The translations under genes and the position numbers were made by a program. From contig CAWCKY010000004.1 in the NCBI GenBank assembly GCA_963796275.1, positions 1,216,001-1,280,000 on the forward strand: a stretch of DNA of 64,000 nucleotides, given 5' to 3'. The notes under the pieces are model-generated. The model was not told the origin of the DNA. It made no database searches and saw nothing but the letters and a program-made list of their open reading frames with translations. This document shows, piece by piece, positions 4,806-46,365 of the stretch; position 1 is the stretch's first letter; each line of letters begins with the position of its first letter. The stretch comes from an uncultured Acidobacteriota bacterium. Lineage in GTDB: Bacteria > Acidobacteriota > Blastocatellia > RBC074.

Positions 4806-5867
4806 CTACGGTTTAGCCTCATAGATTAAATTGAACGGCGTTTCCGTCGCTCTACGGAAGCGTTTGAAACCGCCCGAGGTAACGACTTCGCGCATTCGCG
4901 CCTCGCCTGCCTGCGCTCCCAATGCCAGTCCGACTTCCTGTGAGAGGGAAGCGGGAGTGCAGATCAGCGTCGAGGCGGAATAGAAAGCCCGTCCTATCGA
5001 ATTCAGGTTGTCCTTGACCTGATCGTGAGCGAATGGCTCAACAATCATCCACGTGCCGTCAGGCGCCAGCGATCCTCGGACGTGAGCCGCCGCGCCCGAC
5101 GGATCGCCCATATCGTGAAGACAATCGAAGAAAGTGACAAAATCGTAGCCGGTTCCGGGATAATCTTTCGCTTTTGCGACCTCAAATTTCACCCGATTGG
5201 CGACGCCCCCCTCGCTGGCTCTCTTACGCGCCGTCTCGATGGACTCGTCGTGATAATCGAATCCGATGAAAGTCGACTCGGGGAATGCCTGAGCCATCAG
5301 GATCGTCGAAGTGCCGAGCCCACAGCCGACATCGGCTACTTTCGCGCCCGTTTTGAGTTTTGCCTCAACCCCGTCCAGCGCGGGAATCCACGAGTTCACC
5401 AGGTAGGCCGCATACCCTGGGCGGAAGAAGAGCTCGGTCCCGCGAAAAAGACGGCGGTAATGTTAATGCCATCCTAACCCTTCGCCGGTACGAAACCTTT
5501 CCGTAAGCTTGGGCACAGCTCCAAGCGCTGCTACAGCCACGAGAAAAGCTCCCGGTATATATGCCGGGCTCATCTCATCTCCCAAAGCGAACGCTTGCTC
5601 TTCGGAAAGATAGTAGCGCTGAGTATCAGAGTCATATTCGATGTAGCCGCCTGCCGCCTGGGCACAGAGCCACTCGCGAATGTAACGTTCGTTTGTGCCA
5701 GTGAGCTGCGCCAACTCGGCTGATGAGAGGTGCCTTCCGGCATCGGCCATTGCTTTGTAAAGACCGAGACTCTCTCCAATAACCACCAGGCCGGCGTGAA
5801 AGGTAGCGCCGAAATCAGAGATAAACTTACCCATCAATTGATTTAACTTCTCTTCGTTTATGGCCAT
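4806..5867 (-). pseudogene. Class I SAM-dependent methyltransferase with N-terminal wHTH (Rv2258c-like), in-frame TAA at 5463-5465
   Basis: Two ORFs in the same frame read GLGWH*HYRRLFRGTELFFRPGY. Contains VADVGCGLG and FFDCLHDMGDP. AAGGAG RBS precedes 5867. Confidence 0.85.
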
Positions 5868-5926
5868 GATAAAACTCCTTAAAATATAGTCGGGAGTGTC
5901 GCCTTCAGCAAAAAGCAGGCCGCCGA

Positions 5927-7696
5927 CTAATTGATTTGCTCTATCACCGATGGCGTTCCACCAAGTCTGGCTATCATATGCTCGGCTCTCCATTCGGCCA
6001 GCGCCGAAATAGTCATAAATGGATTGACGCCGAGCGAGGTGGGTATGGTCGAACCGTCGGTGATATATACGCCGTCGTGCAGGTTTCCCAGAGCATCGTA
6101 AACTTGTCCGAAATGGTTGACGACGCCCGTCGTCTGGCTATCGCTCATCACGCAGCCTCCCAACGGATGCGCGGTAACCAGCGTCTTGAATGGCGTGAAC
6201 CCCCAGAGCGGGTTATTTATGTAAGTCCCCCCCAAAGCCTCGGTGTGCTGCAGTAGCCCGGTGTTCATCTGCTCGAAGATGGCTTGCTTACCAACACCGG
6301 GCCATTTTATACGCGCTTCGTCGGTGAGCGGATCTAGTTCGATCACTCCCCCGTGATCGTCGTGCCCATTTACCAGATAAGCGAGCGAGTGATTGCCGGC
6401 GCCTTTCTCCAGGTCGGAACTTCCGACCAGGTCTAGCAGCCGCCTCCCCGCCTCCGAGATGTTATCGAAGAAATTGTTCGGATCAGTATCCTTGCCTATC
6501 ATAAAAGCCAGAGCGGTCCGCACCGCATTGACGTACATCAGCGGTAGCGAAAATTCTTCGGCTTTGTATCGCTCACGCAGCGGTTTATGAGTATTGTATC
6601 TGACCCTGGAGACGATGGATGGTCCCGGGTGAAGCAATTGTCCGGGGCCGGGCTGCAACCGGCGGGCGCGATCGCTGTCGGGATGAGCGCCCCATCCCAG
6701 CGCATCAGTGCGAAGATCGGTGTTGTACGCGAGTGCGAAGAAATCTCCGTTACCGCCGAAGCCTACGCCCAGGCTATCGGGCAAGCTGAGCCCTGCGCGC
6801 CGCGAACGCAACATGATGCCGTTGGAGCCGAGCGTGCCGGCGGCGACAACGACCAGGCGTTTGGCATTAAGTGTTCCGGCTTCCTCCTTTCCGAACGAAC
6901 TCTCGCGCCGCAAATAATGGATCGAATAACCGCCATTCGCATCAGGGGTGAGATGCCGGACCTCAACCTGAGTGAAGATATCCACGCCTCCCCAATTGGC
7001 GATCGCCAGGTAATTGGTATCCAGCGTGTTTTTGGCGCCGACATTGCAACCGCTCGCGCAGTCACCGCAATTGATGCATCTGCGCTGCTGAACCCCCCAG
7101 TTGTTAAGTCCGTCGAATTGAAAATTTACCGTAATATCGTGAAGATCGAACTGCGCGCCGGTGACTCCCTGCGCGCCCCTCTGTAGGGCTTTGGCTTTAC
7201 TGAGCTGCATCCCATTCGGATGTTTGGCGGCAAATAGCGTCGCGTGTGCGCGATCGTAGTACGGCGCGAGCTGACTGTTTTGACTGAGTGTGCGAACAGC
7301 ATCTGGCCAGGGCGATTGTTCGAAGACCTCGCTGTCCGGTCGAATGGCGCAATTGGCGTTAACCAGCGATGTGCCGCCGAGGCCCGATCCGGCGAGCACG
7401 CCGATGTCTGCGCCGAAAGTGTTGTCGTAGAGCCCAAGCGAATTGAACGGGGATCGCGTCTCGTGAAGCCCGCGTTCCAGATTATCCGGGAATTGTCCCG
7501 GGAGCCATTCTTTACCACGCTCGAGCAGTACAATCGACGGTTTTTCATTAGCGGGCCACTGAGCAGTCGCGAGTCGCGCAGCGATAACCGCCCCGCCGTA
7601 CCCGGAGCCGATGATGACCACATCATAGCCATCCGGACGTCTTTGATTCCAATCTTTTGCCAAGGGAGTTCTGTTGACGGTATACATTTGAGGCAT
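5927..7696 (-). CDS. GMC family oxidoreductase (cholesterol oxidase-like)
   Basis: IIGSGYGG FAD motif, LGGTSLVNAN, CINCGDCASGC, TAHPLGG, GVNPFMTISALAE. Confidence 0.85.
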   Translation of the reverse strand: MPQMYTVNRTPLAKDWNQRRPDGYDVVIIGSGYGGAVIAARLATAQWPANEKPSIVLLERGKEWLPGQFPDNLERGLHETRSPFNSLGLYDNTFGADIGVLAGSGLGGTSLVNANCAIRPDSEVFEQSPWPDAVRTLSQNSQLAPYYDRAHATLFAAKHPNGMQLSKAKALQRGAQGVTGAQFDLHDITVNFQFDGLNNWGVQQRRCINCGDCASGCNVGAKNTLDTNYLAIANWGGVDIFTQVEVRHLTPDANGGYSIHYLRRESSFGKEEAGTLNAKRLVVVAAGTLGSNGIMLRSRRAGLSLPDSLGVGFGGNGDFFALAYNTDLRTDALGWGAHPDSDRARRLQPGPGQLLHPGPSIVSRVRYNTHKPLRERYKAEEFSLPLMYVNAVRTALAFMIGKDTDPNNFFDNISEAGRRLLDLVGSSDLEKGAGNHSLAYLVNGHDDHGGVIELDPLTDEARIKWPGVGKQAIFEQMNTGLLQHTEALGGTYINNPLWGFTPFKTLVTAHPLGGCVMSDSQTTGVVNHFGQVYDALGNLHDGVYITDGSTIPTSLGVNPFMTISALAEWRAEHMIARLGGTPSVIEQIN

Positions 7697-7878
7697 GTCA
7701 GGCTTCTCCAATCGTTGGGAAATTAGATATTTTCGAGCTGAGCGGCCGTGTTTATGGCTGAGGCAGTCTATTCCCCCTCGTTGAGAGATGCAAGAGAAGA
7801 CTTTGAGGCGGTTGGAGAAGGAGAGAACCCCAATGGTTATAGGCCATATGCCCGCTTTCGTCTCCTCTACTGTAGCCT

Positions 7879-8430
7879 TCAGAACTCCGCTTCAAGTATC
7901 TCATCACAGACATCGGCCATCGTGCAGCGGGCGCAACGCGTTGGCTGATTGTGACTGCGGCGAGCGCTTCCTTTAATCAGGAGTTTTCTCATTCGGTCAA
8001 CTACATCGATAAGTCTCACGCGCAGCTCATCTGAATTGTCGACCTGTAGCGTTCGGTCACGGTATCGAATCAGACCGTAGGGCGGAATGCAATCGAGGGC
8101 ATCTTCGACCAGAAGAAAATAGGCCGCCAACTGCATGAGATGAGAATCGTACGGCTCGCCTCCGGCCGGCGCATAACTCGATTTAACCTCGACCGGGATG
8201 AGATTGCCGCTACGATCCTTCAGCAAATAATCGGGCTTGCCGCGAATGTTTAGTTGTTTTGCGTGCAACACATCCCGACCCAGCCCGGAGGTATCGTCAT
8301 AAATCAAATCTCCTGCCGGTAACCCGCCTCGCCTCCTGATATAACGTGAAAGCCCGAGCAACAGGGTCCCCAAGCCAAAGAGAAGAAAAATAGCTAAAAA
8401 AAGTTTCGCCTCGATGTTCATCAAAGTCAT
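7879..8430 (-). CDS. Cas4-family PD-(D/E)xK nuclease, C-terminal part with N-terminal TM helix
   Basis: Hydrophobic N-terminus followed by RRR; GKPDY, PVEVKS, QLAAY; C-terminal CARC-x5-C. Confidence 0.8.
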   Translation of the reverse strand: MTLMNIEAKLFLAIFLLFGLGTLLLGLSRYIRRRGGLPAGDLIYDDTSGLGRDVLHAKQLNIRGKPDYLLKDRSGNLIPVEVKSSYAPAGGEPYDSHLMQLAAYFLLVEDALDCIPPYGLIRYRDRTLQVDNSDELRVRLIDVVDRMRKLLIKGSARRSHNQPTRCARCTMADVCDEILEAEF

Positions 8431-8708
8431 TCAGCGCTCCCGAATAATTGGGAGAAAATGATCAAAATCAGAAGCAGCATCAATGCGGTGAGTGCGAGCG
8501 ACTTCCCTATTCGATCCAGACGTTCGGCGAGTGAAATTCCGGCACCGTGCTTGTGATGAAATACAATGCCTTCATCCAAAGACTCAGACTGCGACTCGGC
8601 GCCGCAGCGCTGGAGGTGCCACGCTTTTGCGCAGTAAACGAATGCGCCGATCTCTGATGCCGTAATGATCGGGTGCCGCTCTATATCTCGCATTTTCTTT
8701 CTCTCCAT
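8427..8708 (-). CDS. Cas4 N-terminal segment-like protein with C-terminal TM helix
   Basis: ITASEIGAFVYCAKAW...EGIVFH resembles the Cas4 N-terminal Cys and G-x3-H motif. Ends in LALTALMLLLILIIF. ATGA overlap with the next gene. Confidence 0.7.
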   Translation of the reverse strand: MERKKMRDIERHPIITASEIGAFVYCAKAWHLQRCGAESQSESLDEGIVFHHKHGAGISLAERLDRIGKSLALTALMLLLILIIFSQLFGSAE

Positions 8709-8797
8709 TTTCTTTCTCTGTTGAATGTGTTTCTATATAGGGTTATTTCCATCAAGCAGATAGAGGAGTCGATGCTCGGAAAAACTGAGGGTTTCCC

Positions 8798-8859
8798 GTA
8801 TTCAGTTTTCAGTCGCCGATCGAGCCCCCGCTGAAAACTAAGCCTGAAAACTGAAAACA
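8798..8859. repeat. Heptamer (CAGTTTT/AAAACTG) inverted repeat
   Basis: GTATTCAGTTTTCAG ... CTGAAAACTAAGCCTGAAAACTGAAAAC. Confidence 0.6.
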
Positions 8860-8881
8860 ATTCCCGAGGAAAAATCAACAT

Positions 8882-9436
8882 ATGGTAACTGACAGCCAGC
8901 TCGCGCAAATAATGCCAAAACTACCGGTTGAAAAACGTGCCCTCTACATACCATTCCTGAATAAGGCGATGGATACTTATGAAATCAATAATCGCTTGCG
9001 TAAAGCGGCATTTCTGGCGCAGGTAGCCCATGAATCAGGCGAACTCAGATACCTGGAAGAGATCTGGGTGCCGACCGAGGCGCAGACACTTTACGAACCG
9101 GAGAGCGAGCTGGCAAGGATTCTGGGCAATACTGAACCGGGTGATGGTCAAAGATTCAAGGGACGCGGCGCAATTCAGATCACCGGGCGGTCCAATTATG
9201 CAAAATACGGTGAGATGTTGGGCATCGACCTGATAACCAACCCGGCGATCGCCACGACGCCGCAGATCGCAGTGTCAACGGCCGCCGCATTCTGGCAGAC
9301 GAATGGCTTGAATGAGCTGGCAGATATCGAAGATTTCGGGGAGATTACCAGGATCATCAATGGCGGTCTGAATGGATATGAAGAGCGTTGTAAATACTAC
9401 CAACGCGCGATGGATGTATTCGGGAACAGGGGTTGA
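8882..9436 (+). CDS. Glycoside hydrolase family 19 (chitinase/endolysin-like)
   Basis: FLAQVAHESG, FKGRGAIQITGRSNY, TRIINGGLNG. Confidence 0.85.
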   Translation: MVTDSQLAQIMPKLPVEKRALYIPFLNKAMDTYEINNRLRKAAFLAQVAHESGELRYLEEIWVPTEAQTLYEPESELARILGNTEPGDGQRFKGRGAIQITGRSNYAKYGEMLGIDLITNPAIATTPQIAVSTAAAFWQTNGLNELADIEDFGEITRIINGGLNGYEERCKYYQRAMDVFGNRG

Positions 9437-9524
9437 TCTCGTGTGTCCGAGGCTGGAGGCACCAGATCGGACTCCGGAAACCAATTTCCCGAACTCGGAT
9501 ATCCCCGAATCCGAACAATTTTGA

Positions 9525-11207
<1,683 letters not shown>

Positions 11208-45543: not shown

Positions 45544-46365
45544 TTACTGGTTAGGTTTATCCTTCTTTTCAAGCTTTTCCGGCTCTTGTTTTTCCTGGCC
45601 TTTGTCTGACGGGCCTTTATTTTTCTTTGACGAACCTTTCTTCTTCAGATCTTCTTTCTTCTCTTCCTTCTTCGGTTCATCCTTCTTCACCTCGTGCTCA
45701 TCATGATGATGCTCTTCAGCTTTTGCCTCACCAGTCTTCAGCTCTCCCTTTTTCTCCTTATCATCCTCACCTTTTTTGCCGGAGTTATCATGATCGCTTT
45801 TGTTTTCGTCGTGATGATGCTTCTCATCTTCTACTTTTGCGTCTTTAGCCGCCTTCTCGTCCTTTTCTACTTTTGCGTCTTTAGCGGCCTTCTCGTCCTT
45901 TTCTACTTTTGCGTCCTTAGCGGCCTTCTCGTCCTTTTCTACTTTTGCGTCCTTAACGGTGTTCTCGTCTACATGCTCATCCTTAGCGGGTTTCTCGTCA
46001 GCGGATTTCTCGTCTTTTGCAGCTGTATTCGCGTCCTTGGCTTCGGTCTCGGTCTTTTCATCTGTTTTAGGTTTCTCGTCCGCAACTACATCTTTCTTTT
46101 CGCCCTCTTTGTACTCGGCCAGCCACGCGACGTCAATAGCATCTGCGCTGCGTCGCTCTTTTTCCTTAATCAGCCAATTCCCACGATCGTTCCAGCCTTC
46201 ACCGCCGGTGGGTTGTGTGTGACAGAACGTGCAATTTTTCGCCCCGAACTTCGCCGACTGGCGCAGATAGGCGGGATACGCCTTCGTCTTGATCGACGCT
46301 CCCAGCAACCCGCCCAACAATAGAATTGCAATCGAAACTTTGATCAGGTCTTTATATTTAGCCAT
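45544..46365 (-). CDS. Monoheme c-type cytochrome with a long charged repeat tail
   Basis: Signal peptide, CTFCH, then K/D/E-rich repeats and HHH tracts. Confidence 0.75.
   Translation of the reverse strand: MAKYKDLIKVSIAILLLGGLLGASIKTKAYPAYLRQSAKFGAKNCTFCHTQPTGGEGWNDRGNWLIKEKERRSADAIDVAWLAEYKEGEKKDVVADEKPKTDEKTETEAKDANTAAKDEKSADEKPAKDEHVDENTVKDAKVEKDEKAAKDAKVEKDEKAAKDAKVEKDEKAAKDAKVEDEKHHHDENKSDHDNSGKKGEDDKEKKGELKTGEAKAEEHHHDEHEVKKDEPKKEEKKEDLKKKGSSKKNKGPSDKGQEKQEPEKLEKKDKPNQ
45829..45954. repeat. 36-bp coding tandem repeat (KDAKVEKDEKAA), about 3.5 copies
   Basis: TTCTACTTTTGCGTC(T/C)TTAGC(C/G)GCCTTCTCGTCCTT repeated. Confidence 0.9.

Follow-up and report, generated by a model that had tools for sequence, protein, structure and literature searches.

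Two overlapping genes of an uncultured Acidobacteriota bacterium as putative subunits of a membrane-anchored, CRISPR-independent Cas4-family nuclease

Cas4 and its iron-staple relatives are, to our knowledge, soluble nucleases, single-chain or domain-embedded. A pair of overlapping genes in a 64,000-nucleotide (nt) stretch of the genome of an uncultured Acidobacteriota bacterium (Blastocatellia, RBC074; assembly GCA_963796275.1, contig CAWCKY010000004.1, positions 1,216,001 to 1,280,000; this whole stretch is hereafter the window) raises the question of whether such an enzyme can be divided over two membrane proteins. A first-pass annotation made from the letters of the window had described a split Cas4 at this place, and both open reading frames (ORFs), together with their ATGA coupling, were found on the minus strand, on which all features of the pair lie. 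Gene A (8427..8693, stop codon at 8427–8429) encodes the small subunit of 88 amino acids (aa), a Cas4 N-terminal segment followed by a C-terminal transmembrane (TM) helix. Gene B (7879..8430, stop codon at 7879–7881) encodes the large subunit of 183 aa, in which the Cas4 catalytic core comes after an N-terminal TM helix, and the stop of A and the start of B overlap in the sequence ATGA (8427..8430). We consider that A and B are probably the two subunits of one membrane-anchored Cas4-family PD-(D/E)XK nuclease that is stapled by a 4Fe-4S cluster and independent of CRISPR. Homology of both halves to Cas4, a conserved split, a topology signal, the co-retention of the two genes and a confident heterodimer model were obtained by computation; by analogy with the Cas4 family, the pair would bind a 4Fe-4S cluster and cut single-stranded DNA ends in a Mn- or Mg-dependent manner.

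Each half was compared by hhalign with a profile of canonical Cas4 built from 28 sequences of Acidobacteriota genomes, from which a partial locus, a locus of an unpublished genome and matches of lower rank were excluded. Residues 10–48 of A (8550..8666) aligned with columns 1–40 (82% probability, E 1e-5) and residues 52–175 of B (7906..8277) with columns 57–177 (99.6%, E 2e-24). A and B thus cover a single Cas4 domain between them, interrupted within columns 41–56, and the earlier identification of A as the N-terminal segment of Cas4 is supported by the alignment of A. B also exceeded the cut-off of the Pfam model Cas_Cas4 (PF01930; 27.3 bits, cut-off 22.7) and reached the threshold of PDDEXK_1 (PF12705), in both cases over the last two thirds of the model only, and it matched twelve Cas4 models of PADLOC, with values as low as 1e-16 and with matches that begin at about position 55. 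The first 55–60 positions of every Cas4 model matched are lacking in B. In profile comparisons with solved Cas4 structures, B matched 8d3l (E 2.9e-5) and 7mi4 (E 8e-5), and in the alignment to 4ic1 (SSO0001) its residues D67, E81 and K83 fell on the D, E and K of that protein.

The motifs previously picked out of the translations were all present, namely ITASEIGAFVYCAKAW and EGIVFH in A, and RRR after the first hydrophobic stretch, GKPD, PVEVK, QLAAY and CARCTMADVC (CxxCx5C) in B. Their conservation was assessed in a close-relative set consisting of the window genome and seven related genomes, the eight loci of which are the rows of both 8-row alignments. One of them (L002) is the locus of an unpublished genome (G004) and enters these alignments, the count of eight related loci and the closest pair used for the ratio of nonsynonymous to synonymous substitution rates (dN/dS); every conclusion holds on the other rows and on 160 public loci. 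Invariant in 8/8 sequences were C21 (in a YCxxAW helix; 8631–8633) and H46 (in GxxxH; 8556–8558) of A, and the catalytic residues D67 (8230–8232), E81-x-K83 (8182–8190) and Q100–Y104 (8119–8133) and the cysteines C166-x2-C169-x5-C175 (7906–7935) of B. A larger A alignment had the cysteine in 66/66 rows and the histidine in 65/66, and the catalytic motifs D, ExK and QxxxY with the three C-terminal cysteines were found in 120/120 B-family proteins. The Cas4 pattern of four cysteines, one N-terminal plus CxxCx5C, is complete and conserved, but over two chains: B has only three invariant cysteines and the fourth is C21 of A, as had been proposed. For the closest pair, dN/dS was 0.196 for A and 0.144 for B, and both genes are under purifying selection. 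The metal site may be divided in the same way. The Mn ligands of SSO0001 are given as His62, Asp99 and Glu113 in the accessible text of two reports (PMC12501428; also PMC13621843), and H46 of A would, from the profile alignment, be the counterpart of this metal-binding histidine. With D67 and E81 of B at the positions of the metal Asp and Glu, the two chains would then share the metal site as well as the cluster site.

Hydropathy agreed with the proposal that A ends in, and B starts with, a TM helix. The usual Kyte-Doolittle threshold for a TM helix is about 1.6 (19-residue mean); residues 66–84 of A (TM helix 1, 8442..8498) reached 2.63 and residues 10–28 of B (TM helix 2, 8347..8403) reached 2.43, and the same stretches gave 2.2–3.5 in the seven relatives. 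Across the families, the threshold was reached by 145/147 short A representatives and 119/120 B proteins, and the tails on the outer side were short, with medians of 3 residues in A (the 4-residue tail GSAE in the window) and 5 in B. Topology can be read from counts of lysine and arginine by the positive-inside rule. The mean K+R count per 15 residues was 3.35 before the helix and 0.39 after it in A, and 0.03 before and 3.70 after in B; in the window, the positive patch RYIRRR (8329–8346) directly follows the B helix. Both soluble parts would therefore be cytoplasmic, as deduced earlier from the charges, TM helix 1 having its N-terminus inside and its C-terminus outside and TM helix 2 the reverse, and the gene break would lie at the outer turn of a TM hairpin. 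The break in the Cas4 domain falls between the helices of A and B, which agrees with the view that the enzyme is divided exactly between its two TM helices.

It could be argued that the split is unreal at the protein level, and that the two ORFs are a frameshift error in, or a pseudogene of, a single-chain gene, or that ribosomal frameshifting at the ATGA gives one fused protein. Natural single-chain forms exist (P0149, P0184, P0254 and L124–L127), B lies in the −1 frame relative to A, and the window has another apparently broken gene, an Rv2258c-like methyltransferase (4806–5993). Against this stands the distribution of the split, which makes such an explanation extremely improbable. An A homolog was directly upstream of B with the ATGA overlap in 8/8 related loci (7/7 without L002), the bases flanking the junctions differ, and no slippery heptamer is shared. 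Both ORFs have dN/dS values well below 1. A scan for B loci, with one genome per species, yielded 498 stretches, and our counts refer to the best 80, which come from Acidobacteriota (mostly Blastocatellia) and Chloroflexota (mostly Anaerolineae) and include the cultured strain Pelolinea submarina MO-CFX1 (L081), with a complete genome. A hidden Markov model of the A family placed A upstream on the same strand in 75/80 of these loci, two of the misses being at contig edges, and fused genes were found in 0 of the 80. In three genomes without A beside B, an A homolog was found elsewhere in the genome (one match partial). The A–B spacing varied elsewhere from overlaps to gaps of tens of bases, and in about ten Anaerolineae loci another gene (210-aa HEAT-like or 140-aa) stands between A and B.

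Metagenomes gave a similar picture: a scan seeded with the fused forms returned 80 loci, of which 76 were split and four fused, despite the fused query. A search of 1.84 billion proteins with the A profile gave 1081 cluster representatives at E ≤ 0.001, and 147 of the best 150 were 72–138 aa long; the B search returned 466 proteins. Such a pattern is not due to chance. Thus, A and B homologs co-occur as separate ORFs in 75/80 species-level loci and 76/80 metagenome loci, and an indel lesion as the cause of the split, a caveat of the first-pass annotation, is refuted by the conservation of the split in relatives, species loci and metagenome loci. The split is old and conserved.

Some of these loci have features of their own. 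At L072, L075, L086, L089, L091, L096, L099, L100, L105 and L117, A and B are separated by a conserved helical-repeat gene of 210 aa, its sole family match being a weak, sub-threshold one to PDS5/HEAT, and L083 and L102 have an SdrD_B-like 140-aa gene in this position; either inserted gene could be a third component. In many metagenome loci, genes for ABCE1, an eRF1-like protein and saccharopine dehydrogenase lie close by, and since ABCE1 is a protein of archaea and eukaryotes, these loci read as archaeal. Three records of metagenome-assembled genomes titled 'uncultured Heliobacteriaceae' (L055, L062 and L063) contain A/B pairs that group with those of Acidobacteriota by identity, and for L063 also by tree, and these labels may be wrong.

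The single-chain forms show how the two halves are joined. Three of the best 150 A representatives (P0149, P0184 and P0254; 265–301 aa) combine A, B and the two TM helices in a single chain, the fused metagenome loci are L124–L127, and one fused cluster is annotated as Cas4 in the archaeon Methermicoccus shengliensis. Among longer proteins, a word-index search returned no match to the A profile and one weak 326-aa match to B; it was the exhaustive search of representatives that yielded the fused forms. A single chain with a TM hairpin, which had been put forward as an alternative for this locus, therefore occurs in nature, but only as a rare variant (3/150 and 4/80). The structure of P0254 was modelled with a 105-row alignment (predicted local distance difference test [pLDDT] 93.2, predicted template modelling score 0.87), and the model has two very long helices, 37–87 and 90–124, which form a hairpin. 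Over model residues 5–265, it matched the Cas4 of 7mi4 (7mi4_A; Z 21.2, root-mean-square deviation 2.4, 178 residues); it also matched 8d3l_I (Z 20.2), with further fold matches to AdnA (Z 14.7), Exo5 (Z 14), Dna2 (Z 12), ACE1 (Z 10.6–11.3), AddB (Z 10.3) and SSO0001. Since the fused protein both shows the hairpin and matches 7mi4 and 8d3l, the family can be described as Cas4 in which the His helix is followed by an inserted helical hairpin of ~85 residues, with a tip predicted to lie in the membrane.

A B-domain tree was built from 57 rows, for which every third or fourth locus was taken together with the six fused rows in full and ten of the 28 canonical Cas4. It placed the TM-hairpin forms apart from 9/10 canonical Cas4 rows (99/100). 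The tenth canonical row, on a very long branch (7.4), was placed by itself at the midpoint root, which is a provisional one. The fused rows required four changes on this tree, at least two of which were forced by supported branches. L136, on a metagenome contig of 1027 nt, is the only split locus nested in a well-supported fused clade; its A and B frames overlap by ~114 nt, and the locus may be a fused gene with a frameshift introduced by sequencing.

The fused relatives also bear on the possibility that B works without A, in which case A would be an unrelated small membrane protein (an insertion helper or a regulator), or that the pair is a DNA-binding membrane tether without nuclease activity. 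A matches no curated family, and a cluster is dispensable for activity in the M. mazei solo-Cas4 and in LinCas4 according to the accessible text of the respective reports (PMC13621843 and PMC8610317). However, the invariant residues of A are exactly the N-terminal Cys and the GxxxH His of Cas4, the missing start of every Cas4 model is what B lacks, and the A part is integral to the Cas4 fold in the fused relatives. An inactive tether is in addition at odds with the catalytic residues, all of which are invariant in 120/120 B proteins. We therefore regard this explanation as very unlikely.

For the two-subunit nuclease, the pairing itself was predicted from the two 8-row alignments and a 4Fe-4S cluster ligand, with three controls. 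The A+B complex scored 0.80, versus 0.02 for the best of the controls; in calibration, the 0.80 mark was reached by 116/157 solved complexes and 2/215 mismatched pairs. The runs had at least 92% of contacts in common, with a partner pLDDT of at least 77. In the predicted interface, residues 7–28 (with C21) and 45–46 (with H46) of A contact residues 60–68, 82/84, 94–104, 140–160 and 165–175 of B, and the TM helices meet at residues 59–81 of A and 7–32 of B. The multimer model thus pairs A and B confidently, as the first-pass annotation had anticipated.

We propose that Cas4 has here acquired a long helical hairpin, the tip of which would be formed by the two TM helices, between its N-terminal Cys/His helices and its catalytic sheet, and that in most members, including the pair in the window, the gene has been cut at the short outer turn of this hairpin. 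A would then be a tail-anchored protein of 88 aa that contributes Cys21 as the first ligand of the cluster and His46 for metal binding, and B, with its N-terminus outside, would give Asp67, Glu81-x-Lys83, Gln100/Tyr104 and Cys166, 169 and 175. If the two TM helices pair in the membrane and the N-terminal helices of A dock on the B core, the A–B heterodimer, at the cytoplasmic face of the membrane, should be the only form that has a cluster site and a catalytic metal site.

Several points weigh against this interpretation. A alone had no significant match in Pfam, NCBIfam (including its Cas4 models), PADLOC, PHROGs or the PDB sequences, and its Cas4 homology comes from one profile-profile match (82%, 39 columns), the motifs and the models. 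B scored 56.1 bits on the NCBIfam cas4 model (TIGR00372), below the cut-off of 65, over model positions 61–178 of 180. The fold evidence comes from the fused relative P0254 and not from the two chains of the window. As A and B are halves of a split gene, the complex prediction may have passed from the model's memory of solved single-chain Cas4; the 8-row alignments and the ligand differ from the calibration conditions, and the convergence of the four cysteines is deduced from the interface list of the model. The binding of a cluster, the activity as a nuclease, the insertion into the membrane and the pairing to a heterodimer are predictions throughout. The best library matches of A, to an exonuclease (phrog_69, E 0.19) and an unrelated oxidoreductase (E 2.5), were insignificant and were discarded.

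What such an enzyme would do can be considered from its genome context. The absence of cas1, cas2 and an array from the window, already remarked upon, was confirmed: no CRISPR-like array was found in the window, and Cas1 (PF01867) and Cas2 (PF09827) had no match in the whole genome, which is 94.7% complete. No cas genes were present among the recurrent neighbours of the A/B loci. Around the pair in the window stand metabolic or housekeeping genes, among them those for a GMC oxidoreductase, a GH19 protein, CTP synthase, a TonB-type receptor and a KdsA-sized member of the DAHP_synth_1 family. Downstream of B on the same strand, the Chloroflexi-like loci have genes for an NAD kinase (46/53), a B-box membrane protein (43/53) and RecN (42/53), none of which was found near B in the 27 Acidobacteria-like loci or the 80 metagenome loci. 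RecN was rejected as a general partner, being near B in one lineage only, with recN on another contig in the window genome; this confinement also tells against the proposed interpretation, since the link may be inherited synteny. Endonuclease V lies downstream of B on the same strand in 7/27 Acidobacteria-like loci (L046, L050, L053, L055, L060 and two others), abutting B in L055, which we read as synteny of a subclade. The synteny of A/B loci is stable within lineages and looks like vertical inheritance.

Gene B is the only match to PDDEXK_1 (PF12705) in the 9.46-Mb genome of the window, and with this model no AddB-, RecB- or AdnAB-type nuclease domain was found in the genome besides B. A PDDEXK_1 match in an open frame of at least 700 aa was present in 3/8 relatives with the A/B pair versus 22/33 without it, in genomes that are related and few, and a replacement of AddAB by the pair is a lead only. 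From its context, we think that the pair may serve housekeeping DNA-end processing for repair or recombination near the membrane, and not CRISPR adaptation, although we put this at somewhat short of an even chance. The fuller proposal is doubtful, namely that A and B form an obligate membrane-embedded heterodimeric iron-sulfur (Fe-S) nuclease representing a large, overlooked and vertically inherited family of Acidobacteriota, Chloroflexota and Archaea, that it carries out housekeeping DNA-end processing at the membrane, such as membrane-proximal break repair with RecN, and that it may replace AddAB/RecBCD-type resection where B is the only RecB/AddB-type domain found.

The same two-subunit membrane nuclease could instead act in defence or in the control of incoming DNA, and would then degrade the DNA of phages or plasmids, or DNA taken up in transformation, on its emergence at the membrane's inner face. 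DNA uptake, defence and gating by pairing or redox state had been suggested as possible functions in the first-pass annotation; the gene neighbourhoods have a housekeeping rather than a defence character. A membrane tether would put the active site at the point of entry of foreign DNA. In the accessible text of the respective reports, a Cas4-like gene lowered the transfer or maintenance of RSF1010 in Synechococcus elongatus (PMC10653904), ACE1 acts with Argonautes (PMC12094033), and uncharacterised roles in defence or repair are proposed for solo-Cas4 (Hudaiberdiev et al., PMC5704561). However, no defence-island context was seen: the window neighbours are metabolic, and what recurs in the vicinity of the pair is either NAD kinase and RecN or ABCE1 together with the eRF1-like gene and saccharopine dehydrogenase. 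PADLOC gave only Cas4 and weak DruK matches for B and none for A, the lineage-stable synteny looks vertical, and no gene for discriminating self from non-self was apparent. A defence role thus seems unlikely.

How the membrane-anchored A/B pair relates to known enzymes can be seen from the closest systems. With CRISPR-associated Cas4 (PF01930/TIGR00372; type I-C 8d3l, the Cas4 domain of a Cas4/Cas1 fusion from Geobacter sulfurreducens, 7mi4, and SSO0001, 4ic1) it has in common the fold (via the fused relative), the D/ExK/QxxxY motifs, one N-terminal Cys plus CxxCx5C and the positions of the metal ligands. Unlike these proteins, A/B consists of two polypeptides that are predicted to be membrane-bound, has the hairpin of ~85 residues with two TM helices after the His helix, and occurs in a genome without cas1 and cas2 and a window without an array, with B alone under the TIGR00372 cut-off. 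By its motifs and fold, A/B is in the Cas4 superfamily; it departs from canonical Cas4 in chain number and solubility and in CRISPR association.

The pair resembles the solo-Cas4 genes of Hudaiberdiev et al. (2017, PMC5704561), as far as their accessible text describes them, in being a Cas4-family gene outside CRISPR-cas and mobile-element contexts with a lineage-stable context. That text notes a solo-Cas4 clade in 'many Chloroflexi', to which the B-type proteins of Anaerolineae probably belong. In its main text, as accessible, 'transmembrane', 'split' and 'N-terminal' do not occur, the single 'membrane' is part of a gene name, and the partner gene A and the anchor are not described. The Methanosarcina mazei solo-Cas4 (PMC12501428) and ACE1 (PDB 9iab and 9iac) are, in the accessible descriptions, likewise CRISPR-independent Cas4-family nucleases with an iron-staple cluster; unlike A/B, they are single soluble chains, and the M. 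mazei protein is without the RecB motif that B keeps. The words 'membrane' and 'transmembrane' do not occur in the accessible text of PMC12501428.

AddB, AdnAB, Dna2, Exo5 and MGME1 share the PD-(D/E)XK core with A/B, and in them a cluster or equivalent staple joins N- and C-terminal segments. They are DNA-end resection enzymes, which occur either as domains within large soluble helicase-nucleases or as soluble enzymes standing alone, and unlike A/B none is split at, or anchored by, TM helices. Among the papers listed in searches of the open literature, to which subscription journals are external, we found no description of a TM-anchored or split Cas4, and the proteins treated in PMC13621843, PMC10653904 and PMC12501428 are soluble.

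Some further features of the locus and the window should be mentioned. A tandem duplication of 15 nt (2.2 copies; 8686..8719, no strand assigned) over the start region of A creates two in-frame start codons, at 8708 and 8693, the first of which gives a longer form of A (8427–8708, 93 aa). The sequence GGAGA stands 7 nt upstream of the ATG at 8693, the 88-aa form is that of the public protein collection, and 88 aa is also the typical length of homologs. Given the homolog lengths and the database entry, the ATG at 8693 is the likelier start. In 7600–9000, a scan for promoters and terminators gave no terminator and a single promoter-like site, which lies on the wrong strand; this is no more than is obtained with shuffled sequences, and an Rfam search of 7000–9600 gave no RNA family match. 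Of the four sequencing runs listed, two contain part of the stretch, in small shares of Logan contigs (0.17 and 0.07), and no listed run that contains it is of RNA. On the minus strand at 4806–5993, an Rv2258c-like methyltransferase is present as two ORFs, a winged helix-turn-helix part (5463–5993) and a methyltransferase part (4806–5399). The two parts of Rv2258c-like proteins are normally in one chain, and this gene looks like a frameshift or a break. At 45829–45969, there are 3.9 copies of a 36-nt unit with 95% identity, inside a wider repetitive stretch (45607–46014).

The family is thus predicted to put the iron-staple nuclease chemistry of Cas4 on the membrane, and in most members one cluster ligand and one metal ligand are on a small partner annotated as a 'hypothetical protein'. 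In the databases B is named 'CRISPR-associated Cas4' and A 'hypothetical protein'; annotation therefore gives half an enzyme the name of a CRISPR component in organisms without CRISPR and misses its partner. The family is large, with 1081 cluster representatives of A and 498 species-level B loci, and the presence of the pair in the cultured Pelolinea submarina MO-CFX1 makes the prediction directly testable. If the heterodimer is real, it would be a natural Fe-S nuclease assembled from two membrane proteins, a handle on the role of CRISPR-independent Cas4 proteins and a case study of gene fission at the turn of a membrane hairpin.

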